DNA of 48,939 nucleotides from Escherichia phage vB_EcoS_PHB17. Both the position numbers and the translations under genes were made by a program. Shown here one piece after another: positions 1,210 to 45,410 of the stretch; within the stretch, counting starts at the first letter, position 1; the number at the start of each line of letters is the position of its first letter. The stretch lies in the sequence record NC_054892.1; one strand, given 5' to 3'. Below the pieces are notes generated by a model that was not told where the DNA came from, searched no databases, and was given only the letters and a program-made list of their open reading frames with translations.

Positions 1210-1529
1210 TGCAAAAGTTCAAAGTGGTGTTAGGCGCAATCATGGTTGTTGCTGGCGTCGTCATGCTGACTGGTTGCGACGGCGACACCAGGACGCCGGA
1301 ACATGCACGCATCAAAATGCAGGTTGAAACGGGAGCAGATCACAACCGCGTTAGCGTGCGCAAGTTGACAGAGTTTGCTGACGGCCTGGCGTACAACGAC
1401 AAGCGCGGGATTTACCTTATCACCGATAAGCAAACGGGCAAGGAATACATTGGCGTTTCTGGTGTCGGTATCACCGAAACAGGATCGCACGCTTGCGGAA
1501 AGGGTTGCACACGCCAGGATGAGCGATAG
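1209..1529 (+). CDS. putative lipoprotein (106 aa)
   Basis: N-terminal hydrophobic segment ending in lipobox LTGC followed by Asp at +2 (CDGD); start overlaps previous stop. Confidence 0.6.
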   Translation: MQKFKVVLGAIMVVAGVVMLTGCDGDTRTPEHARIKMQVETGADHNRVSVRKLTEFADGLAYNDKRGIYLITDKQTGKEYIGVSGVGITETGSHACGKGCTRQDER

Positions 1530-1545
1530 CACTTTTTGTTAAAAC
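1526..1545 (+). promoter_or_regulatory. conserved motif copy ATAGCACTTTTTGTTAAAAC
   Basis: Begins on TAG stop of lipoprotein gene; followed by hairpin GGGGTT..AACCCC containing TATAGT. Confidence 0.5.
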
Positions 1546-1759: not shown

Positions 1760-2033
1760 TTTCACCAGCTATACAGCAACGGTTGATTTTGAGGGGTTGA
1801 AATTACCCCTCCCGAACGTGTGCCGATACATAACGCGCGATGAGTTCGGCTTTATCCAGGCCTGGGCGAATAGGCCAACCAAAAACACGGAGCACGGCGG
1901 CTTTGGTGATGGAGAGTTTACGCCGATCACGTTAGGACACCAGCGCGGAGACAATCCCGTTGTTATGCGCAAATATCGCCGCAGCCGTAGTAACTGCCTT
2001 ATCTCAATTTTTGGCATCATTCCGCCACGATAG
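1743..2033 (+). CDS. hypothetical protein (96 aa)
   Basis: In-frame ATG 1743 (MSSTPDF) overlapping stop of the 52-aa ORF; longer track start 1656 lacks RBS. Confidence 0.45.
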   Translation: MSSTPDFTSYTATVDFEGLKLPLPNVCRYITRDEFGFIQAWANRPTKNTEHGGFGDGEFTPITLGHQRGDNPVVMRKYRRSRSNCLISIFGIIPPR

Positions 2034-2049
2034 CACGAATTGCTAAAAC
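2030..2049 (+). promoter_or_regulatory. conserved motif copy ATAGCACGAATTGCTAAAAC
   Basis: Overlaps TAG stop; followed by hairpin CCAGG..CCTGG and CATAAT. Confidence 0.5.
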
Positions 2050-2426: not shown

Positions 2427-2597
2427 ATGAAATCTCGCGAATATCGTAACATCAACAATTCCCTGGTCTACTGGCTGGAGAACGGCGAGGTTTTGGTTCG
2501 ACATCCAGAAACAGGAAAAGTGATCCGTTCAGGATATAGCGCGGAGACTTTCTTTGTGATGGTTGGCAACGACACGCTGGAATTGATTGAAGAATGA
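2427..2597 (+). CDS. small hypothetical protein (56 aa)
   Basis: ATG 2427 with AGAGGAA upstream after motif and hairpin; below track cutoff. Confidence 0.35.
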   Translation: MKSREYRNINNSLVYWLENGEVLVRHPETGKVIRSGYSAETFFVMVGNDTLELIEE

Positions 2598-2676
2598 GCG
2601 CATTAACTTTCTTTCATGCCGTCACCTGGGCGGCGTTGTTCACCTGGCTATTCACTCACTACTAACGGAGAGATTC

Positions 2677-3216
2677 ATGATTGAGTTTGAAATTTGGGGC
2701 AAGACCTACCGCCTACCAACGCCAAACAAAGGGGTTGTGATTGTCGATTATGATGGCACGCTTTCGGACGGTGCGCACCGCTTGCACCTGTTGCCAACAA
2801 AGGATCTGCATTTAACTGAATCCTGGAGTGAGTTTAATCGCGCGGCAATTCACGACACGCCAATCAGAGATACGATAGCCGTAATCAATGGCCTTTGGGT
2901 ATCCGGTTTCGCCGTTATCGTGCTAACAGGCCGTAGCGATGAGGTAGAGCGTGAATCTCACGAATGGCTAAACTACCACGGCGTCAAATACGATTACATG
3001 ATCATGCGCCGCGCCACTGATAACCGCAAAGACACGATCATCAAAGAGGAGGTGTTACGCGCGATAGGGCTTGAAAACATCGTGTGCGCCTTTGACGATT
3101 CGCCGTCTGTTATCCCATTTATGCGCAGCCTGGGGATCACAACATACGCGGTCACGCATTACGAGCAACCGCATTCACATTTGCAGAGTCACGGCGTGGA
3201 GGAGTTGCCAGAATGA
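2677..3216 (+). CDS. HAD-superfamily phosphatase / nucleotidase-like protein (179 aa)
   Basis: HAD motif I VIVDYDGTL, motif II VLTGR, C-terminal DDS; GGAG RBS before ATG 2677. Confidence 0.65.
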   Translation: MIEFEIWGKTYRLPTPNKGVVIVDYDGTLSDGAHRLHLLPTKDLHLTESWSEFNRAAIHDTPIRDTIAVINGLWVSGFAVIVLTGRSDEVERESHEWLNYHGVKYDYMIMRRATDNRKDTIIKEEVLRAIGLENIVCAFDDSPSVIPFMRSLGITTYAVTHYEQPHSHLQSHGVEELPE

Positions 3217-3368
3217 TTAGCGCATGGTTTTTGGTGTCGATCACATATTACTGCGGGTTGCAGCCGATTGAATTTACCAGCCACAAGGCTTGCATTGAGG
3301 CGCGGGAGACTATCAAAAAGAACACTCCAGGCAGTTGGGCTAATATTTACGTTTGCGTGAAGAAATAG
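3213..3368 (+). CDS. small hydrophobic protein (51 aa)
   Basis: ATG overlaps stop of phosphatase gene (ATGA); hydrophobic N-terminus. Confidence 0.3.
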   Translation: MISAWFLVSITYYCGLQPIEFTSHKACIEARETIKKNTPGSWANIYVCVKK

Positions 3369-3381
3369 AGGGTTTATCGAA

Positions 3382-3564
3382 ATGATGCAAGACAAGTACG
3401 GCGATCACATTCGCATTTACACCACGGAAAGCAAGCAAAACGTTTTTGTTGATTGCTCCTATGAGGATTCACCGGAAAAACTACAGTTTCGCGCCGTCCT
3501 GGGCTTGCGTGAAGCCAGGGAGCTTGTGCGGCAATTGCAAAAGGCAATGGGAGAGCTTGAGTAA
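3382..3564 (+). CDS. hypothetical protein (60 aa)
   Basis: ORF in operon context. Confidence 0.4.
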   Translation: MMQDKYGDHIRIYTTESKQNVFVDCSYEDSPEKLQFRAVLGLREARELVRQLQKAMGELE

Positions 3565-9489: not shown

Positions 9490-11058
9490 ATGCTTATTTG
9501 GGAAGATTTGACAGCGGCGCAGAAACGCGCCATTAAAGAAATGAGCGAGCTTTCATTTGAAAAGATGATCCGCATATGGTTTCAACTCCTGCAAGGCCAG
9601 AAGTTTTTAAGCAACTGGCATTTCAGCTACCTATGCAGTGAGGTAGAGAAAATCATTTCCGGCGAATCGCAAAACGTGATCTTTAACATCACGCCAGGTT
9701 CGGGTAAAACGGAAATCTTTTCGATCCATATGTCGCCGTATGCGTCAATCAAAAGCAAAAAGGTGCGCAACCTTAATCTTTCGTTTAGTGATGGCCTGGT
9801 GCAACAGAACAGCAACAGGATCAAGGAGATTGTTGGATCTCCAGAGTGGCAAGAGTTATGGCCTGGCAAGCTGGCGAAAGCCAGCGCCAAAGATCTGATT
9901 GTGCAGGACGAAAACGGGAAAGTTAAGTTGCAGGTGAATTCCCGTTCAATTGGTGGACAGGTTACGGGCTTGCGTGGCGGCTATATGGATGATGGTTTTA
10001 CGGGGATGTTGGTACTTGACGATCCAGACAAACCAGATGATATGTTTTCGAAGGTGCGCCGTGAAGCAATGCAAATGCGCCTAAAAAACACCGTGCGATC
10101 ACGTCGAATGAAAGACACAACGCCAATCGTAATGGTTCAGCAGCGGCTACACGTCAATGATTCTACTTACTTCATGACAAGCGGCGGCATGGGCGGCATT
10201 CAGTTTAAAGTTGTGAGCATTCCGGCGCTAGTTACGAAAGAATACCGCGAAACGCTTCCTGAGTGGTTAATTCCTGAATTTGATCGTGATGTGCTGACAA
10301 GCGAGCCTGTTTATATTGACGGCGTGGCGCATTACTCTTTTTGGCCTGCAAAGGAGAGCGCAAAAGACCTTTTAGCGCTACGCGAGGCCGACCCATACAC
10401 TTTTGCATCACAGTATCAGCAGCATCCTATAGCGTTAGGCGGCAACGTGTTTAAAGTGGATTGGTTCCAGTATTACGGCGACGGCGAGAAATGCACGCTA
10501 CCAAAACCGGAACGCTTTGAGTACACATTTATTACGGCGGATACAGCGCAAAAAGTAGGCGAGCTAAACGACTACACTGTTTTCTGTTATTGGGGCATGT
10601 ACAAAAACCGCGTTTACTTCATTGATGGCGTGCGCGGCAAATGGGAAGCGCCAGACCTTGAAACAAACTTTGTGGCTTTCGTTAATCAGTGCTGGAAGCG
10701 CAACAAAGAATGCGGCTCCTTGCGTAGAATCCACGTCGAGGATAAAGCGAGCGGAACGGGCTTGATTCAGGGGGCAAAGAAAAAGATCCCTATTGATATA
10801 AATCCCGTTCAGCGCAACACGGACAAAGTAACACGCGCGATGGATGCAGCACCAGTTATGAGGGCGGGGCGCGTTGCATTGCCTGAAAACCATCCAATGC
10901 TTGCGGAGCTACTCGCAGAGGTGGCTGCGTTCACGTTCGATGATTCTCATCCAAACGACGATATCGTTGATAACATCGTTGATGCGGTCAACGTGGAAAT
11001 GAACCTCGCAGACGATCCGGTTGCACGCATGAAAAAACTGGCTGGATTGAAGAAATAG
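9490..11058 (+). CDS. terminase large subunit (522 aa)
   Basis: ATPase P-loop TPGSGKTE in N-terminal half, acidic nuclease-type C-terminal half; first of packaging/head genes. Confidence 0.85.
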   Translation: MLIWEDLTAAQKRAIKEMSELSFEKMIRIWFQLLQGQKFLSNWHFSYLCSEVEKIISGESQNVIFNITPGSGKTEIFSIHMSPYASIKSKKVRNLNLSFSDGLVQQNSNRIKEIVGSPEWQELWPGKLAKASAKDLIVQDENGKVKLQVNSRSIGGQVTGLRGGYMDDGFTGMLVLDDPDKPDDMFSKVRREAMQMRLKNTVRSRRMKDTTPIVMVQQRLHVNDSTYFMTSGGMGGIQFKVVSIPALVTKEYRETLPEWLIPEFDRDVLTSEPVYIDGVAHYSFWPAKESAKDLLALREADPYTFASQYQQHPIALGGNVFKVDWFQYYGDGEKCTLPKPERFEYTFITADTAQKVGELNDYTVFCYWGMYKNRVYFIDGVRGKWEAPDLETNFVAFVNQCWKRNKECGSLRRIHVEDKASGTGLIQGAKKKIPIDINPVQRNTDKVTRAMDAAPVMRAGRVALPENHPMLAELLAEVAAFTFDDSHPNDDIVDNIVDAVNVEMNLADDPVARMKKLAGLKK

Positions 11059-11076
11059 CACTAATTGCTAAAAAAC
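11055..11076 (+). promoter_or_regulatory. conserved motif copy ATAGCACTAATTGCTAAAAAAC
   Basis: Overlaps TAG stop of terminase large subunit; followed by TGATATAAT and terminator hairpin. Confidence 0.5.
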
Positions 11077-11085
11077 TGATATAAT

Positions 11086-11113
11086 CAGGGCTGGACTTTT
11101 CCAGCCCTTTTTA
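11086..11113 (+). terminator. rho-independent terminator-like hairpin
   Basis: AGGGCTGG-ACTTTT-CCAGCCCT then TTTTT, between terminase and portal genes. Confidence 0.6.
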
Positions 11114-12410: not shown

Positions 12411-13156
12411 AGGTAAACGGCATTGTTAAGCAATGGCGATTTCCAGAAGCGAGCGAGCGGGATTTATCCCGCTCCATCAAGCGAGCGGTGCGCGATCTGG
12501 TTGTGCTTATGCGCAGCAAAACGCGTGCAATGAAGTTTGACGCAACAGATCAGGAAATCACCACGGCAGAAGATGAGATCAGGGAATTCGCAAAGAATCT
12601 GGCGTTGTCTCTGATTGGTCTACTTCCACAACTTGCGGCTACGGTCTACAAGTTCAACTCAAAGCAATTCGTTAACGTTGCGAAATCTACGGGCGGCGCG
12701 GCTAATCCTTCCGTTATTTTGCTGATCGCAATCGGAGCCAATCAGGGAGAAAGCTGGTATCAAAAGCTATATGGCGAATGGCACACAATGAGCGCTGATT
12801 CATTCGATAAGCTATTCACTAACATCATTCAGGATTGGGCGAGTAATATCCGGCAAGCCAACTTTACCGGAAAGAATGCGGAGCAGGTTAACGAGCTTTC
12901 AGAGCAGCGATTCGCGGTCTATTCGTCCTGGTCTGGCAACCGTGCAACCGGAATTATAGGATCGTGGAATAGTCGCCTGATGCGCCAGCGACTTTATGAT
13001 GCTGGGGTGAATTCTTATTTCTGGCATGGTATGCTTGATGAGCGCGAGCGCTTAAAGCATTTGCGTTGGGAAGGAAAAGAGATTGATTTGAATGAAATTC
13101 ATCCCTTCCCTGGTGAGGAATACGGTTGCCGTTGTTGGGCGATCCCTAAATGGTAG
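12407..13156 (+). CDS. minor head / head morphogenesis protein (249 aa)
   Basis: Position after portal, start overlapping portal stop; conserved C-terminal region. Confidence 0.6.
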   Translation: MKVNGIVKQWRFPEASERDLSRSIKRAVRDLVVLMRSKTRAMKFDATDQEITTAEDEIREFAKNLALSLIGLLPQLAATVYKFNSKQFVNVAKSTGGAANPSVILLIAIGANQGESWYQKLYGEWHTMSADSFDKLFTNIIQDWASNIRQANFTGKNAEQVNELSEQRFAVYSSWSGNRATGIIGSWNSRLMRQRLYDAGVNSYFWHGMLDERERLKHLRWEGKEIDLNEIHPFPGEEYGCRCWAIPKW

Positions 13157-13169
13157 AGGAGCAAACAAA

Positions 13170-14282
13170 ATGAAAAAGGTTCAACGCTTTGATAGCGTTC
13201 AGGTAAAGGCAAAAATTGATGAGCATGGTTTTTTGGTAGACCGTCCTATTGTTGCCCGTATTGGGTTGCAGGTTTACAAGACGCCTTTTGGCGAGCGTCG
13301 AGAATTCCGCCCCGCCTCCGAGGTGTTCAAGGCTGATTCGCTTGAAACGTTTTCAGGCAAGCCGATCACTATCGGTCACGTCACAGTGACGCCGGAGAAT
13401 GCAAAAGAGGTTGTTGTTGGCGCGTGCGCTGGTGCTGGCGTGCAAAATGGGATCGGGGTAGAGGTTCCATTAAGCATTTACGACAAGCGAGCCATTCAGA
13501 GCGCTAAGAAAAAGCAAACCGCCGAATTGTCAGTAGGCTACACGTCTGTAGATATTGACAAGCCAGGTTGGGGCAACAATGCAACTGGTGAATACTTCTT
13601 TGATGAAGATATGCCGGAAGGATGGAAAGCGGATAGCGCGGATTGGGTGCGATTTGATGCGGTTCAGACAAATATTAGCGTTAACCATATCGCTTTGGTA
13701 TTCAAAGGCCGCGCAGGTATCGCAAAATTGAATCTTGATAGTGAGCAGGAATTCCCGTATGATAATTGCGAACAATCTAAAAAAGAGGATACTGTAATGA
13801 CTGTAAAAATTAAACTTGACGGCGCGGTTGAATTCGACGTTCCGAAAGAGGTTGCAACCTTCATCGACACCGTGAAAGCAGACGCAGAAGCGGCAAAAGC
13901 AAAAGCCGATGGCCTGGAAGCAGAGCGCGACGCGCTGCAAACCAAAGTTGATGGCATTCCGGCAGAAATCGAAAAAGCCGTTAAACAGGCGAAAGCAGAC
14001 GCAGAAGCACATGCGGAGCTTGTAAAAGTTGCCGAGGAAGTTGGTGTTAAAACCGATGGCCTGGACGCCAAAGCGATCAAAGTTGCTTACGTAAAAGAGG
14101 TTACTGGCGCTGACATTTCCGCGAAAGCAGACGCATACATTGATGTTGCATTTGATCTGGCGAAAGATTCTGATAAAATGGCGGCTCAACGTATCGCGAC
14201 CAAAGGCGATGCGGCAAAAGAAAAGCAGGACGGCGAAACGGCTCTAAACCCAAACGCACGCCTGGCTAAACTCAACAAGTAA
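13170..14282 (+). CDS. putative scaffolding / prohead protease-like protein (370 aa)
   Basis: ATG 13170 after AGAGGAG; C-terminal half is Ala/Lys/Glu-rich coiled-coil-like; lies between head morphogenesis and capsid genes. Confidence 0.5.
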   Translation: MKKVQRFDSVQVKAKIDEHGFLVDRPIVARIGLQVYKTPFGERREFRPASEVFKADSLETFSGKPITIGHVTVTPENAKEVVVGACAGAGVQNGIGVEVPLSIYDKRAIQSAKKKQTAELSVGYTSVDIDKPGWGNNATGEYFFDEDMPEGWKADSADWVRFDAVQTNISVNHIALVFKGRAGIAKLNLDSEQEFPYDNCEQSKKEDTVMTVKIKLDGAVEFDVPKEVATFIDTVKADAEAAKAKADGLEAERDALQTKVDGIPAEIEKAVKQAKADAEAHAELVKVAEEVGVKTDGLDAKAIKVAYVKEVTGADISAKADAYIDVAFDLAKDSDKMAAQRIATKGDAAKEKQDGETALNPNARLAKLNK

Positions 14283-14294
14283 GGAGAAACAAAA

Positions 14295-14771
14295 ATGGCT
14301 ATTCCGGCATACTATCAGAAAAACATGGCACGCGCTTTACCTGGCCAGGTTTCCGACACTTCCGCCTACAACATTGACGGCGCTTGTGTTCTGGACGGCG
14401 ACGTTAATATCCTGGTTGGCGTTGCGGTTCAGCATGGCGGCGTTGACGCCATTGGTAACAAGAAAGTCAAGCCAATGGCGTCTGAGGGTAAGGCTTACGG
14501 TGTGGCGATTCGCTCCCACTTCCAGACCACTTCCGCAAGCGGTCGCATGATGTACGAGGCTGGCGGCGGCATCAACGTTATGACCGAAGGTCGCGTTTGG
14601 ATGGTTGCAAAAGATGAAACCGCACCAGCTTACAAAACAGCGATCAAGCTGGCTGATGACGGAGAGGTTGATACCAATAGCGGCACAATCGAAACCAATT
14701 GGGTTGCAACTGGTGACTTCACCGAGTTCCAGGATCTCAAGCTGGTTGAGGTGAAGTTGTTCGGCGCTTAA
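14295..14771 (+). CDS. capsid-associated structural protein, paralog 1 (158 aa)
   Basis: AAGGAG RBS; clear similarity to the next ORF (YNIDG, VNV-T-G-VW blocks); followed by terminator. Confidence 0.5.
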   Translation: MAIPAYYQKNMARALPGQVSDTSAYNIDGACVLDGDVNILVGVAVQHGGVDAIGNKKVKPMASEGKAYGVAIRSHFQTTSASGRMMYEAGGGINVMTEGRVWMVAKDETAPAYKTAIKLADDGEVDTNSGTIETNWVATGDFTEFQDLKLVEVKLFGA

Positions 14772-14785
14772 TGCCACGTTACAAT

Positions 14786-14811
14786 AAGGCACTCTACTGA
14801 GTGCCTTTTTT
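14786..14811 (+). terminator. rho-independent terminator
   Basis: AAGGCACTC-TACT-GAGTGCCTT then T tract; between the two paralogous structural genes. Confidence 0.75.
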
Positions 14812-14832
14812 ATTTGCACAGGAGAAAATGTT

Positions 14833-15336
14833 ATGAGTGATTACGGCGTATTATGGGGAGCAACCAAGCCAGGGTGTTTGATTGATTCCACGAGATACAA
14901 CATCGACGGCACAGGGGTTTGCAAGTCGGATTCAATCCTGATTGGTAAGGCTGTATGTTTTGCCGGATTCGACGGCGTTTACAAAATGTTATCAGATGAT
15001 TTTGGCGACACTGCCGAAGCCGTTGCGGTTGGCGTCGCATTGAGAACTAACGACTGTTTAACCATTGATGAACATATGGGCTACATGGCGTACCGATCAG
15101 GCGATTCCGTGAACGTTGTCACTCGCGGCAATGTTTGGGCTTTATCTGAGGAGATCGTTTCCCGTCCAGAATTCGGTTACAAGGTTTCGGTCTTGAGCGA
15201 TGGTTTTATCAGCGACGCCGGAGAGTTCGTTGTTGATGGTTGGGAGTTCACTGGTGACTTCATCAAGTACGACAACCAATTTAACCTGGTGGGCGTTAGC
15301 TTGAAGCGTCCTGGTCGGCTCGTAGCCGCTCAATAA
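14833..15336 (+). CDS. capsid-associated structural protein, paralog 2 (167 aa)
   Basis: AGGAGA RBS; paralog of 14295-14771. Confidence 0.5.
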   Translation: MSDYGVLWGATKPGCLIDSTRYNIDGTGVCKSDSILIGKAVCFAGFDGVYKMLSDDFGDTAEAVAVGVALRTNDCLTIDEHMGYMAYRSGDSVNVVTRGNVWALSEEIVSRPEFGYKVSVLSDGFISDAGEFVVDGWEFTGDFIKYDNQFNLVGVSLKRPGRLVAAQ

Positions 15337-15354
15337 CACAAAAACCTGTTGCAC

Positions 15355-15373
15355 GTTTAACAAAAAGTGCTAT
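15355..15373 (-). promoter_or_regulatory. conserved motif copy, reverse orientation
   Basis: TTAACAAAAAGTGCTAT on plus strand between paralog 2 and major capsid genes. Confidence 0.4.
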
Positions 15374-15419
15374 CATTGGGCTGTTGATTGAAAACAGCCA
15401 CTTTTAAGGAGAATTAGCA

Positions 15420-16391
15420 ATGACTGATAAAACCAAAAAGTACGATGAATTTGATGCTTCCATTGTTTCCGCCCACCTGCAAGCGCAGGGTGTGAAAGCT
15501 GACGCATCCGATATGGGTATTTGGACGGCGCAGGAGCTACACAAAATCCGCTCTACCGCATACGACAAAGAATACCCTGTAGGCTCCGCGCTTCGCGTGT
15601 TCCCTGTTACTAATGAACTTAGCGACACGGATAAAACTTTTGAATACCAGACCTTTGATAAAGTTGGTTACGCAAAAATTATCGCTGACTATACCGACGA
15701 CCTGCCAACTGTAGACGCGCTTATGTCTACTGAGTTTGGTAAAGTGTTCCGCCTTGGTAATGCGTTCCTGATTTCCATTGACGAAATCAAAGCAGGTCAA
15801 CGAACTGGTAAGAGCCTGAGCAACCGCAAAGCAAACGCAGCGCAGAGCGCACACGATCACCTTGTTAATCACTTGGTGTTCAAAGGTTCCAAGCCGCACA
15901 AAATTGTGTCAGTGTTTGACCATCCGAACATCACCAAAGTTGTTGCGGCGGAAAAATGGTATGACGCAGGAACCAAAACCAAACGCGCGGAACAGGCTTA
16001 CAACGATCTGACTGATGCGCTGGAAGTGCTGGAAACCCAAACTGACGGGCAGCACCGAGCAACTCACATTCTGATCCCGCCGTCCGTCCGTAAAGTTCTT
16101 ATGGTTCGTATGCCTGAAACCACCGAAAGCTATCTTGATTATTTCATGAAGCAGAACGGCGGTATTACCATTGAAGCAATCGCGGAACTGGAAGATTACG
16201 ACGGTAACGGCAACAAGGGCGTACTGGTCTATGAAAAAGACCCGATGAATATGTCTATTGAAATTCCAGAAGCGTTTAACATGCTTCCGGCGCAGCCTAA
16301 AGACCTGCATTTCAAAGTGCCTTGCACCTCAAAATGCACTGGCCTGACAATTTATCGCCCATTAACTATTGTGTTAATCACTGGCGTGTAA
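15420..16391 (+). CDS. major capsid protein (323 aa)
   Basis: AAGGAG RBS; size and position in head module; followed by terminator. Confidence 0.75.
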   Translation: MTDKTKKYDEFDASIVSAHLQAQGVKADASDMGIWTAQELHKIRSTAYDKEYPVGSALRVFPVTNELSDTDKTFEYQTFDKVGYAKIIADYTDDLPTVDALMSTEFGKVFRLGNAFLISIDEIKAGQRTGKSLSNRKANAAQSAHDHLVNHLVFKGSKPHKIVSVFDHPNITKVVAAEKWYDAGTKTKRAEQAYNDLTDALEVLETQTDGQHRATHILIPPSVRKVLMVRMPETTESYLDYFMKQNGGITIEAIAELEDYDGNGNKGVLVYEKDPMNMSIEIPEAFNMLPAQPKDLHFKVPCTSKCTGLTIYRPLTIVLITGV

Positions 16392-16398
16392 TAATATT

Positions 16399-16424
16399 GG
16401 GGAATCCTTCTGGGTTCCCCTTTT
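16399..16424 (+). terminator. rho-independent terminator-like hairpin
   Basis: GGGGAATCC..GGGTTCCCC stem (1 mismatch) plus TTTT after major capsid gene. Confidence 0.55.
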
Positions 16425-18362: not shown

Positions 18363-19022
18363 ATGCACCTTCCTAACGGTTCACAAATTTTTATTGAAAG
18401 CACGCGAGCGGCAGAAAAAGAAGTAACTGCCATTACCAATGCAAAGGAACCAGTTGCAAGCATTTCAGACACCGAAGGTCTGGCAAAGGGCGATATTGTG
18501 ATCGTTGTTGCTTCCACCTGGGGAAAGATGCTTGATCGCGTTCTACGAATCAAAGATGTACAGGAAAACCAGAGCGTAACTCTTGATGGTATCGACACAA
18601 CAGATACTAACGTTTTTCCGGCTGGCGCAACTGCAAGCATTGCGAAAATCACCGCGTGGACTGAGATCCCATGTGTTCAGGATCTTTCGCAGGACGGCGG
18701 CGAACAACAGTTTTACACTTACCAGTGTTTGTCCGACGATCAGGAGCAGCAGATCCCGACCTACAAGAGCGCTGTTTCTATGACTTACACTTTTGCGCAC
18801 GAATACGACAACGCAATTTACCCGCTGTTGCGTAAAGCCGATGAATCAGGCGAAGTAACCGCGTTGCGTATGTACGTACCGAAAGCAAAAGAAATGCGCA
18901 TGTGGGCTGGTGTTCTCTCTTTCAACGAGATCCCACAAACCGCAGTTAACGAGATGGAAACCGTTTCCATCTCTTGCTCCCTTAAAGGGCGCTTTACTTT
19001 CCTTCCTGCAACGCAGGGTTAA
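18363..19022 (+). CDS. major tail protein (219 aa)
   Basis: AAGAGG RBS; followed by the strongest terminator in the window then the chaperone genes. Confidence 0.7.
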   Translation: MHLPNGSQIFIESTRAAEKEVTAITNAKEPVASISDTEGLAKGDIVIVVASTWGKMLDRVLRIKDVQENQSVTLDGIDTTDTNVFPAGATASIAKITAWTEIPCVQDLSQDGGEQQFYTYQCLSDDQEQQIPTYKSAVSMTYTFAHEYDNAIYPLLRKADESGEVTALRMYVPKAKEMRMWAGVLSFNEIPQTAVNEMETVSISCSLKGRFTFLPATQG

Positions 19023-19024
19023 CC

Positions 19025-19050
19025 AAAAGGGGCATTGCGCCCCTTTTTTT
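19025..19050 (+). terminator. rho-independent terminator
   Basis: GGGGC-ATTGC-GCCCC flanked by A4 and T7, after major tail protein gene. Confidence 0.85.
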
Positions 19051-19089: not shown

Positions 19090-19108
19090 TTTTAACAAAA
19101 AGTGCTAT
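19090..19108 (-). promoter_or_regulatory. conserved motif copy, reverse orientation
   Basis: TTTTAACAAAAAGTGCTAT on plus strand between major tail terminator and chaperone gene. Confidence 0.4.
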
Positions 19109-19757: not shown

Positions 19758-19781
19758 AAAGCGCCTACGGGCGCTTTTTTC
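19758..19781 (+). terminator. rho-independent terminator-like hairpin
   Basis: GCGCC-TACG-GGCGC plus T6 between frameshifted chaperone and tape measure genes. Confidence 0.7.
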
Positions 19782-19798: not shown

Positions 19799-22489
19799 AT
19801 GGCGGAACAATACGCGGGAATTTCGTTAGGCGTTGACGTTTCACAAGTCAATAACGCCGTAAAATCCTTGCAGCAGTTCAAACAGGCAAACCACGACGCA
19901 GCAAAAAGCGTTGAGGGCTTTGTTGATCAGGAACAAGTTGCAAAGCAGCGCTCGAAAGAGCTTGCACAAGAGTTGGCAAAACAGCGCAAGGAATTTCAAA
20001 ACATCCAAAACGCGATTGACCCAACGGCGGCTAAAATGGATCGCTTGCGCCAGGCGTCCAAGCAATTAGATAGCCTTTGGAAAAAAGGCATTGTGCCTGA
20101 TAAAGATTTCTTTCAGTTGGGGGAAATCCTTGAGGCTCAAGAATCAAAGCTGCAACGAAACAGAAAGGCGCTAACAGAGGAAGGGCGCGCGGCGCTTGAG
20201 GAGTCAAAGCAGAAAGCCAGGGCAGCAGCAGAGGCGCAAAAATTCATTGCGGCTCTTGAGGCGCAAGCGGCGGCGGCTGGAAAGACTCAAGCCGAACTAA
20301 CGGAAATGAAAGCGGCTCAATTGGGCGTAAGCGCACAGGCAGCGCCATTTATCGCGCAGATGCGAGCGCAGGAAAAGGAAGTTGAAAAGTTAGGAATCTC
20401 AATGGGGCAGTATCGCCAGGCTATGCGAATGCTTCCGGCGCAGATCACAGACGTTGCAACTTCACTTGCTGGCGGTATGCCGATTTGGTTAGTGGCAATC
20501 CAGCAGGGTGGACAGATTAAGGATTCTTTTGGCGGTCTTGTTCCGATGTTCAAGGCGCTTGCAACATTCATCACGCCTTTCAATGTTGGTCTTGCGGCGC
20601 TGGTTGGTACGTTGGGTTATCTGACTTACAACGCGTACAGTTCTAAAAAGGCACTCGATGAGGTATCAAAAACCGTTCAGGATGCAACGGGGCTTTCCGG
20701 CGAGTTCGCGGAAAAGATTTCGTTAGGTGTTCAGGCGTTAGCAGACGCGAGCGGCAAGAGCGCAGATGAGATCGCAAAGGCTTACATTTCCACGAAAGAC
20801 GGCGCACAGGAAGCGATTGAAAAGCTGGTTAACGTTGGCTTTAGCTATGACGAAGCGCGGGAGAAGGTGGAGCAATATAAAAATGCTTCCAGCTTTGTGA
20901 CGCTAAACAATGAGATTGCTGATCATATGAACAAGGTGCTTGAATTGGGTGATTCCTGGTTTGAGGTGCTCAAGAAGAAAAAAGAGTACATTTCACCTAC
21001 TGGCGGCGGCGGTGGCTCCCTGGCTGACAAAGAGTTAGGCCACGTAAACAAGGCTCTTGTTTTTGCGAAACAGACGCACGCCGACATTGCAAAGATCGTG
21101 AAAGACAGCAACGTTGATTTTGCAAAGCGTGCTGGCGAGATTGACAAAACAAACCTTTCCCTAAACCGCTTGCGTGCAGCACAGGAAGCACTAAACAAAG
21201 CGATTGAGGATGAAAAATATGTTGCTCAATCTTCAGACAAGGAGCTAAAGAAAAAGGCGGCTGAAAACGTAGCGTTGCGCCGGAAAGAGCTTGAGGAGTT
21301 ACAGAAACTTGAGCAGAAGAAAGGCAAGACCAAAACGCAGGGCGGGATCACGAAAAGCCCAACAGAACAGCTTGATAAAGAGTTGTACGTTTTGAAAGCG
21401 CAGTTAGAAACGCTGAAAGAGCATCGCACTGTTAACGATGTGATTTCGCGCCAGCGCCAAGCGTTGTGGAGTGTTGAAAAGCAGATCCAGATCTTGCAGG
21501 AAGCGCAAAGCAAACGCGGCCTAACCGCAGCAGAGAAAAAGCTATTGGCGGAACAGCAAAGCGTGCTGGAGTTGTCAAAGCAAAAAGCGGAGTTGGGCGA
21601 TCAAATTTTGATTCAGGAGCGCAAAAACAAACTTGAGCAAAATTCAGTCGATTTTATCCGCGAGACTACCGCAGCGATTGAGGAGCTAAACCTGAAACAA
21701 CAGGGCATGACGGATCAGCAAATTCAGCGCGAGCTTGAGTTGCAAAAAATCCGGTCTGATTACCTTGCGAAAGGCGGAAGCGTTGATGATACAGCGTTGC
21801 AGGACATGATCGCGAAACGCAAGGAGTATTTCGAAATGGAGGATCAGTTACAAGGCAACTGGCTTGCTGGAGCTAAAAAGGCGTTTGCCGATTACGGGCA
21901 GGAAGCAACCAACATGTACGCCAATGTTAACGAAGTCGCTACGGCTGGCCTGAATGGTTTATCGTCGTTAATGACTGACTTCCTGACTACCGGAAAAGCC
22001 AGCTTTAAAGATTTTGCAAGTAGCATCATTAAAATGATTGTTCAGATGATCGCTAAGATGGCAATCTTTAACGCTATTTCCGGCGCGATGGGTGGCAAAA
22101 CATTCTCGTTTTCTGGACTGGCTAAAGGTTATGCTGGAGGGGGTTACACTGGTGATGGCGGAAAGTATGATCCGGCTGGCGTGGTTCACAAAGGTGAATT
22201 TGTATTCACCAAAGAGGCAACACAGAGGATCGGAGCCAAAAACCTTTACCGCTTGATGCGTGGCTACGCTAACGGCGGCAGTGTTGGCGGTTCGGCTCAA
22301 ACGAGAGGCGCGTCGGTTGGCAGTGTTGGATCTCAATTCAATTTCGGTGATATCATGGTTGACGTGAACAACGGCAACGACCCGCGAGGAATGGAAACAG
22401 GGATCAAGATGATTTTCACTGAAATGATTCAACGGGCGTGCTCGCAGGGCGGCGAGGTATATAACTTTGTTAATAGTAAGAGGGGGTAA
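19799..22489 (+). CDS. tail tape measure protein (896 aa)
   Basis: Long coiled-coil-rich ORF after the chaperone pair; Gly-rich C-terminal region. Confidence 0.85.
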   Translation: MAEQYAGISLGVDVSQVNNAVKSLQQFKQANHDAAKSVEGFVDQEQVAKQRSKELAQELAKQRKEFQNIQNAIDPTAAKMDRLRQASKQLDSLWKKGIVPDKDFFQLGEILEAQESKLQRNRKALTEEGRAALEESKQKARAAAEAQKFIAALEAQAAAAGKTQAELTEMKAAQLGVSAQAAPFIAQMRAQEKEVEKLGISMGQYRQAMRMLPAQITDVATSLAGGMPIWLVAIQQGGQIKDSFGGLVPMFKALATFITPFNVGLAALVGTLGYLTYNAYSSKKALDEVSKTVQDATGLSGEFAEKISLGVQALADASGKSADEIAKAYISTKDGAQEAIEKLVNVGFSYDEAREKVEQYKNASSFVTLNNEIADHMNKVLELGDSWFEVLKKKKEYISPTGGGGGSLADKELGHVNKALVFAKQTHADIAKIVKDSNVDFAKRAGEIDKTNLSLNRLRAAQEALNKAIEDEKYVAQSSDKELKKKAAENVALRRKELEELQKLEQKKGKTKTQGGITKSPTEQLDKELYVLKAQLETLKEHRTVNDVISRQRQALWSVEKQIQILQEAQSKRGLTAAEKKLLAEQQSVLELSKQKAELGDQILIQERKNKLEQNSVDFIRETTAAIEELNLKQQGMTDQQIQRELELQKIRSDYLAKGGSVDDTALQDMIAKRKEYFEMEDQLQGNWLAGAKKAFADYGQEATNMYANVNEVATAGLNGLSSLMTDFLTTGKASFKDFASSIIKMIVQMIAKMAIFNAISGAMGGKTFSFSGLAKGYAGGGYTGDGGKYDPAGVVHKGEFVFTKEATQRIGAKNLYRLMRGYANGGSVGGSAQTRGASVGSVGSQFNFGDIMVDVNNGNDPRGMETGIKMIFTEMIQRACSQGGEVYNFVNSKRG

Positions 22490-36463: not shown

Positions 36464-36483
36464 ATAGCACTTTTTGTTAAAAT
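36464..36483 (+). promoter_or_regulatory. conserved motif copy ATAGCACTTTTTGTTAAAAT
   Basis: In divergent region between HTH gene and helicase; TGTAGTATAGC downstream. Confidence 0.5.
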
Positions 36484-45391: not shown

Positions 45392-45410
45392 TTTTAACAA
45401 AAAGTGCTAT
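45392..45410 (-). promoter_or_regulatory. conserved motif copy, minus strand
   Basis: Overlaps TAG stop of 45407-45652; hairpin GTTGCCG..CGGCAAC with TATACT, then AAAGGAG and ATG 45337. Confidence 0.5.

Follow-up and report, generated by a model that had tools for sequence, protein, structure and literature searches.

The closest described counterparts of the genes considered here belong to phage T1, whose head, as resolved with cryo-electron microscopy (cryo-EM), consists of 415 copies of gp47, its major capsid protein (MCP), overlaid by 80 homotrimers of gp49 and 60 heterotrimers that each combine a single gp48 with two gp49, placed on the icosahedral and quasi-three-fold axes (PMC11945409). 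These trimer counts amount to 360 gp49 and 60 gp48 in each icosahedrally averaged head, a ratio of 6:1. Here we analyze the 48,939-nucleotide sequence of Escherichia phage vB_EcoS_PHB17 (NC_054892.1; this whole stretch is referred to below as the window), in which two adjacent open reading frames (ORFs) precede the MCP gene: A (14295-14771, + strand, 158 residues) and B (14833-15336, + strand, 167 residues), both confirmed at these coordinates. The best explanation of this locus, to which we assign a probability of roughly 0.85, is that A and B form a cement protein pair with the trimer roles of their T1 homologs, and that read-through of a terminator between the two genes fits the need for a 6:1 ratio.

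Both T1 proteins adopt a beta-tulip fold, like gp56 of phage TW1 and gpD of lambda; the extended N-terminus of gp49 reaches the inner capsid surface, gp48 is confined to the outside, and gp48 ends in a protruding, unresolved Ig-like domain at its C-terminus that may assist adsorption (PMC11945409). Each T1 hexon is ringed by four homotrimers and two heterotrimers (PMC11945409, Figure 2 legend), and the portal-vertex PDB entry of phage FCWL1 contains five chains of gp29; from the geometry of these two arrangements, the heterotrimers would occupy the 60 penton-adjacent sites. In addition, a study of phage TLS that compared the structural proteins of T1 and TLS by SDS-PAGE assigned an 18.5-kDa virion band, P7, to the homolog of A (PMC11447400). 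Decoration proteins of the XM1 kind likewise form trimers on the three-fold and quasi-three-fold axes of T=7 capsids with the HK97 fold (PMC10457771).

Two Cement Protein Paralogs of the T1 Kind

The first-pass annotation of this DNA had proposed that A and B are homologous and had suggested a pairwise alignment as a check. That alignment is significant: BLASTP pairs the two proteins over 146 residues with 31% identity and 49% positives (E 5e-18), a similarity far beyond chance, and A and B are paralogs. Among the shared blocks that had been listed, YNIDG and GDF hold, with YNIDG and TGDF present in both proteins alike, whereas VNV-T-G-VW describes B (VNVVTRGNVW) and not A, which has INV in place of VNV (INVMTEGRVW).

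Two Pfam families, PF22758 Phage_cement (E217 gp24/Pam3 gp6) and PF23982 XM1_gp53_minor_capsid, recognize both proteins with scores above their gathering threshold of 27 bits. A scores 99.4 bits against PF22758 (profile positions 1-143 of 146) and 66.8 bits against PF23982, and B scores 60.4 bits (positions 5-135 of 146) and 92.3 bits (positions 1-153 of 154), respectively. Neither protein has a hit to the gpD family among its Pfam matches. Among solved structures, A matches over its full length the 158-residue "decoration protein / cement protein II" chain found in 9KZJ, the T1 capsid, and in 9KMG and 9KMH, the capsid and portal vertex of FCWL1 (E 3.9e-45). B matches the same chain, gp49, with an E-value of 3.3e-13, and the 255-residue "BIG2 domain-containing protein / decoration protein gp29" chain (T1 gp48, 9kzj_H) with an E-value of 2.1e-9. 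Judged by these matches, T1 gp49 is the ortholog of A, and B corresponds to the part of T1 gp48 that forms its N-terminal beta-tulip domain (residues 1-150).

A structural model of B points the same way. Computed with AlphaFold2 from 24 aligned homologs of A and B, it reached a mean predicted local distance difference test score (pLDDT) of 86.6 and a predicted template modelling score (pTM) of 0.83, and its best Foldseek matches in the PDB are the FCWL1 and T1 cement chains (9kmg, 9kzj; TM-score 0.77-0.82, root-mean-square deviation 2.0 Å). The next matches are decoration proteins of Pam3, XM1, Borrelia phage BB1 and E217, and the base of the phi29 head fibre (gp8.5), with a Foldseek probability of 1.00 for Pam3 8hdt, XM1 7kmx and E217 8frs; gpD is absent from the top 50 PDB matches. 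The model thus predicts a beta-tulip fold for B, and for A the same fold is expected from its 55% identity to the solved gp49 chain. Proteins of the A kind carry 15-17 residues ahead of an invariant PG (16 in the window), except gp07 of the Rogunavirus AHP42 with about 7, and proteins of the B kind carry 12-13, an N-terminus about four residues shorter than that of A throughout the family.

The first-pass annotation had offered decoration or cement proteins as a guess from position and had regarded function as not assignable from sequence. Homology to structures published in 2025 does allow the assignment, and the guess proved right by the Pfam thresholds, the matches to solved chains, the fold of B and the cryo-EM structure of T1 (PMC11945409); the structure prediction that it had recommended, run for B, superposes on the T1/FCWL1 cement chains. 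A is the major and B the minor cement protein of the capsid, of the T1 gp49/gp48 kind. The main use of this result is correct annotation, as many T1-like GenBank records call the two proteins hypothetical, "zonula occludens toxin" or "scaffolding protein"; we encountered the labels "putative zonula occludens toxin", "scaffolding protein" and "peptidase" on homologs in MK778457, MN153797, OM317910 and PP503414.

A Conserved Terminator-Like Hairpin Between the Genes

The 61-nucleotide (nt) spacer between A and B contains a hairpin that begins 15 nt past the A stop codon. Its stem spans 14786-14807 (AAGGCACTC-TACT-GAGTGCCTT; 9 bp with 5 GC pairs, closed by a 4-nt loop) and is followed by TTTTTTATTT. 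The predicted folding energy is about -15 kcal/mol, the spacer has a z-score of -2.0 against shuffled sequences, and a scan of 11 kb for terminator-like sites ranked it in the top four. The rho-independent terminator that the first-pass annotation had placed between the ORFs is therefore real as a sequence feature, by both scan and fold.

The element is conserved well beyond the window. A hairpin with a T-run lies directly 3' of A in all 23 related loci surveyed (Tempevirinae, T1, a Webervirus and a Rogunavirus), and under strict criteria 22 of the 23 have a site, as do 0.8% of the 78-nt windows taken from these loci as background. Among 13 distinct sequences there are at least eight distinct inner stems (for example GGCACTC/GAGTGCC, GGCGCTC/GAGCGCC, GGCTCC/GGAGCC, GGCCGGA/TCCGGCC, AGGGGC/GCCCCT and AACCCGC/GCGGGTT, with GGGGACTATCC/GGATAGTCC in T1), the T-run being kept throughout, and each of six inner pair positions shows three to four canonical pair types with zero mismatches. 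These pairs were counted by script from the loop outward, as loop lengths differ and the MAFFT alignment of the hairpins is out of register. The GenBank records of KpV522 and AHP42 also annotate a rho-independent terminator at this place. An intergenic, co-oriented, GC-rich stem-loop with a U-tract has the sequence characteristics of an intrinsic terminator, and its structure appears to have been conserved by compensatory change.

Arrangement of the Locus

Megablast places the region among the Drexlerviridae, the T1-like phages, and the window phage is a T1-like siphophage of the subfamily Tempevirinae. Its closest relatives are the Tempevirinae phages W011D and PaulSarasin (86-89% identity at 87% coverage, the coverage being only 87% because gene B fails to align at the nucleotide level), and one IMG/VR contig, IMGVR_UViG_2974745880_000001, is identical to the window. 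The genes run in the order large terminase, portal, Mu-F-like head morphogenesis protein, DUF2213 protease/scaffold, A, B, MCP and a DUF7444 protein. The features of the locus, with the evidence for each, are:

9490-11058: large terminase gene
13170-14282, + strand: prohead protease/scaffold gene (DUF2213), directly 5' of A; Pfam DUF2213 and phrog_530 head maturation protease (E 6e-110)
14295-14771, + strand: gene A, major cement (decoration) protein, by homology the T1 gp49 ortholog; Pfam, PDB and neighbor-joining (NJ) tree
14786-14815, + strand: terminator-like hairpin and T-run; terminator scan, fold and conservation
14833-15336, + strand: gene B, minor cement-protein paralog; Pfam, PDB, AlphaFold2/Foldseek, omega and NJ tree
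15349-15376, + strand: putative sigma-70-like promoter of the MCP gene; conservation and the KpV522 annotation
15379-15399, + strand: hairpin GGCTGTT-GATTGAA-AACAGCC, then ACTTTT; position kept in relatives
15420-16391, + strand: MCP gene, HK97 fold, its product the partner to which A and B would bind; PF09950 Major_capside (186.9 bits) and phrog_264 major head protein
16399-16420, + strand: terminator-like site after the MCP gene; terminator scan

Protease, A, B and MCP are syntenic in 21 of the 23 Drexlerviridae loci, namely those that carry B, and T1 has the same order of a 158-residue gene, a 255-residue gene and the MCP gene. For the protease itself, the longest ORF starts at 13092 (+ strand) and overlaps the preceding gene by 65 nt; relatives are mostly 369-371 residues long, equivalent to a start at 13170 (MKKVQRF...), and two loci (L014, L016) give 396 residues. 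A start at 13170 appears likelier than one at 13092.

The putative MCP promoter reads TTGCAC, 16 nt, TGc-TATCAT and is nearly invariant in a 12-locus alignment. The T1 version is TTGACG-16-TATTAT, and the KpV522 record annotates the corresponding element as a promoter; the promoter annotated upstream of the MCP gene in AHP42 fails to align with the conserved block. The element was recognized by its conservation across phages, since a simple promoter scan did not list it, its -35 hexamer agreeing with the consensus at only three positions. The same scan found no promoter-like match on the + strand between 14180 and 15654, and hence none for B.

Translation signals differ between the paralogs. 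A is preceded by the Shine-Dalgarno sequence TAAGGAG (about 14281-14287), which recurs in 14 of 16 loci, with TAAGGGG in T1 and CAAGGAG in KpV522, and MCP genes mostly have TAAGGAG or AAGGAG. The Shine-Dalgarno sequence of window B, AGGAG, lies about 5 nt past the T-run and is shorter than that of A; AGGAG, GGAG, GGGAG or TGGGG precedes B in 13 of 14 loci, and TAAGGAG precedes it in locus L017.

A second hairpin, at 15379-15399, starts 3 nt past the -10 element of the MCP promoter. Its position is kept and its sequence varies in relatives, a full T-run follows it in T1 and L017, and the predicted transcription start site falls inside its left arm. This hairpin might halt transcription arriving from B and yet let transcripts that start at the promoter pass, or might be a 5' structure; a role as 5' mRNA stabilizer was dropped as the primary reading in view of the start site predicted in the left arm and the full T-run in T1 and L017.

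Form and Divergence of Gene B

Window B ends about 10 residues past the beta-tulip domain, and Pfam gives it no hit to Big_2, the domain present in T1 gp48, W011D gp3 (269 residues) and the homolog of locus L016 (263 residues). Across the 23 loci, the position of B is occupied as follows:

Short form of B, 143-168 residues: several relatives, including the window
Long form of B, 255-269 residues: T1, W011D, L016 and others
No gene: the Webervirus KpV522
Collagen-repeat protein and a second small ORF: the Rogunavirus AHP42

In KpV522 (L023) the stretch between the cement-gene terminator and the MCP promoter, 2460-2569, contains no gene. In AHP42 (L024, NC_024793) the stretch at 2575-3459 encodes a protein with collagen triple-helix repeats (Pfam Collagen, E 1e-9; annotated "DNA polymerase") and a 124-residue ORF. 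A Big_2 domain on the second paralog thus appears to be a variable feature of the family and not a defining one. The number of places that tblastn reports per record was rejected as a count of phages without B, as it is unreliable: T1, which has both genes, is listed with a single place.

Of the three head genes, B has diverged most, with identities to the window across relatives of 35-84%, compared with 55-85% for A and 76-98% for the MCP, and its best matches among GenBank phages stay at or below 58% (P-K7R, 57% by tblastn; W011D, 58% in pairwise alignment). Nevertheless, omega, the ratio of nonsynonymous to synonymous divergence, is 0.11-0.27 for B in six close pairs, comparable to 0.06-0.28 for A, and B is by this measure a functional gene under purifying selection. 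Between the window and W011D, synonymous divergence (dS) is 0.35 for the MCP, 0.75 for A and 2.65 for B, and so strongly mosaic a pattern points to recombinational exchange of B and, in part, of A. In an NJ tree A and B form separate groups, which places the duplication early within the family; single-copy proteins join the A group and T1 gp48 branches near the root.

Expression and Stoichiometry

By analogy with T1, A and B would be small beta-tulip proteins that trimerize over the three-fold and quasi-three-fold capsomer junctions of a T=7 head, with A homotrimers at 80 sites and two copies of A plus one of B at the other 60, a demand of about 360 A to 60 B per virion; we infer both the virion location and the stoichiometry for this phage. 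In this model, A would close a transcription unit and combine a canonical intrinsic terminator with a 7-nt Shine-Dalgarno sequence, and B would be left between this unit and the next, in the 0.6 kb that separate the terminator of A from the MCP gene's own promoter. Because the terminator lies upstream of B, no promoter of its own is recognizable and the MCP promoter is separate, B is probably dependent on read-through of the terminator, from which alone it would be made, and it would be translated less efficiently than A. A short-form B would have a structural role alone, that of adapting the trimer where it is incorporated, and no adhesive one. Expression of A above B, which the first-pass annotation had deemed likely, is consistent with the 360:60 ratio of T1, with the conserved terminator and with the stronger Shine-Dalgarno sequence of A. 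Together, the family-wide terminator, the weaker ribosome-binding site of B and the MCP gene's own promoter, which bracket the minor paralog, would offer a simple account of how paralogs are produced at 6:1 in a phage without an RNA polymerase of its own.

Several points weigh against this account. The hairpin inventory was built by a hairpin finder, so canonical pairing is partly a product of construction, and the background control covers the presence of the sites, not their pairing. The -35 element of the window's MCP promoter matches the consensus at 3/6 positions, and a multi-copy repeat makes up the promoter spacer. Capsid geometry alone could direct gp48 to its specific sites in T1, at any expression ratio, and heterotrimers at the same sites would be extrapolated to a B that lacks Big_2 and has about 30-35% identity to T1 gp48. 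Moreover, weberviruses manage with A alone, which would make B dispensable for the basic architecture. The literature searched yielded no Drexlerviridae transcriptome, no mapping of transcription start sites or terminators and no protein abundances; read-through is an inference, as are the efficiency of termination and the activity of the promoter.

Other explanations of the locus have also been put forward or can be formulated. Instead of attenuating transcription, the hairpin could stabilize the 3' end of the mRNA, be processed or bind a protein, and the A:B ratio would then depend only on translation efficiency or on assembly geometry. The shorter Shine-Dalgarno sequence of B compared with A in 13 of 14 loci means that translation alone could explain part of the ratio, gp48 sits at defined sites in T1 (PMC11945409) which geometry could enforce, and terminator-like hits in the region are little above those in shuffled sequence (18 versus 14 +/- 4). 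On the other hand, a T-run directly follows every homologous hairpin, a hallmark of intrinsic termination that would be superfluous for a stabilizer; the element lies 14-45 nt 5' of B with no promoter between; and independent annotators, of KpV522 and of AHP42, called it a rho-independent terminator. We therefore consider this explanation unlikely. Terminator hairpins also stabilize the upstream message, and the two roles are compatible.

Less probable still is that B is a decaying or redundant duplicate that has lost its Ig domain and is heading for loss as in weberviruses. The divergence of B relative to A and the MCP, the missing Big_2 domain and the lack of a B gene in weberviruses would agree with such a fate, which we nonetheless judge very improbable given that the ORF is intact in all 21 loci carrying B, that omega of B is comparable to that of A, that short forms of 143-168 residues are widespread and fall in a coherent B clade apart from A, and that the AlphaFold2 model of B is confident. 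The GenBank names, "scaffolding protein" for homologs of B (W011D, P-K7R) and "putative zonula occludens toxin" for homologs of A, would imply a scaffold and a toxin-like protein, with neither in the mature capsid. Pfam matches A and B only to cement and minor-capsid families and to no Zot or scaffold family, B is predicted to adopt the same beta-tulip as the solved chains, and the actual scaffold is the coiled-coil C-terminal part of the upstream protease gene; both homologs reside on the mature T1 head (cryo-EM, PMC11945409; PDB 9KZJ), so that for T1 the idea has already been refuted, and for the window there is hardly any chance that it holds.

The family, the fold, the capsid location and the annotation of the terminator were already known. 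What the present analysis adds, as proposals of middling probability, is the divergent short-form B, the link between gene layout and the 6:1 ratio, and a view of the interval between terminator and MCP promoter as a variable slot for accessory decoration proteins; we found no published link of the layout to the 6:1 stoichiometry, nor a description of B as a gene stranded between modules. In our estimate the slot falls somewhat short of even odds. The interval (about 0.05-0.9 kb) may be a conserved, attenuated "accessory decoration slot" in the Drexlerviridae, whose occupant would be expressed by read-through only, at about one sixth of the cement protein, and swapped by recombination. It would hold a bare beta-tulip paralog in the window, a paralog with an Ig-like domain in T1 and W011D, collagen-repeat proteins in AHP42 and nothing in the Webervirus. 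Were this so, gene position would set the stoichiometry of a minor subunit (60 copies per T1 virion) with no dedicated regulator. The layout also offers a natural insertion slot through which foreign domains could be displayed at low copy number on T1-like capsids.

Other Features of the Late Region and Genome

An 18-nt element, TTTARCAAnnnGTGCTAT, occurs in 22 copies in the window (with at most 2 mismatches) compared with 0.2 expected, for example at 1526-1543(-), 2030-2047(-), 11055-11072(-), 15356-15373(+), 19091-19108(+), 36464-36481(-) and 45393-45410(+). It is an imperfect palindrome, TAGCA-N5-TGCTA, and several copies lie 10-45 nt 5' of start codons, one of them forming the spacer and -10 region of the MCP promoter. 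The element matches a 21-nt direct repeat found 21 times in phage TLS, for which roles as stoperator, enhancer or UP-element have been suggested (PMC11447400). In the window it could serve a phage regulator as operator or make up the core of a phage-specific promoter.

Within the protease gene lies a nested candidate scaffold gene that resembles the C/Nu3 arrangement of lambda, with an in-frame ATG at 13797, a Shine-Dalgarno sequence GAGGA at 13785-13789 and a 162-residue coiled-coil product that matches phrog_36941 end to end. Ahead of this start, at 13735-13763 (+ strand), is the best sigma-70 match of the region, TTGATA-17-TATGAT, the -10 element of which is preserved as TATnnT in relatives, with the encoded residue being variously D, H, S or T. 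This putative promoter, if active, would produce a short scaffold-plus-A transcript ending at the 14786 terminator.

Four more strong hairpin and T-run sites were found on the + strand, at 11087-11108 after the terminase gene, at 16399-16420 after the MCP gene, at 19025-19047 after the gene at 18363-19022, and at 19758-19777 before an 896-residue gene (19799-22489) that is probably the tape measure. Their distribution suggests that transcription of the late region is divided among several short units.

Comparison With Known Systems

Among characterized systems, the locus is most similar to those of T1 and FCWL1, with which it shares the order protease, A, terminator hairpin, B, promoter and MCP, the full-length homology of A to gp49, the beta-tulip fold, and an N-terminus that is long in A and short in B. 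The similarity is closer for A (55% identity to gp49) than for B (about 30-35% to gp48). Unlike T1 gp48, which has 255 residues and a Big_2 Ig-like domain, B has 167 residues and none, and lacking this C-terminal domain it would be unable to provide the adhesive protrusion proposed for gp48. Moreover, heterotrimer stoichiometry is known from T1 virions, whereas here it is extrapolated from genes. A "transcripton" picture was proposed for the T1 late region in work of 2004, as cited in PMC11447400, and as relayed there its modules have a pattern that the terminator after A, the promoter before the MCP gene and the terminator-like site at 16399-16420 would fit.

Similarly to the decoration proteins of Pam3, XM1 and E217, both window proteins pass the thresholds of the two Pfam families, and the model of B matches the structures of these proteins. 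XM1 has a single decoration protein, gp53, that forms homotrimers (PMC10457771), whereas the window encodes two diverged paralogs, whose T1 counterparts assemble into 2:1 heterotrimers at 60 sites. The gpD protein of lambda and gp56 of TW1 belong to the same functional class of trimeric beta-tulip clamps that stabilize the expanded head at three-fold junctions (PMC11945409, PMC10457771). The likeness to gpD lies in fold class and function only, with no relation of sequence family, and the N-terminus of T1 gp49 penetrates to the inner capsid surface whereas that of gpD does not (PMC11945409).

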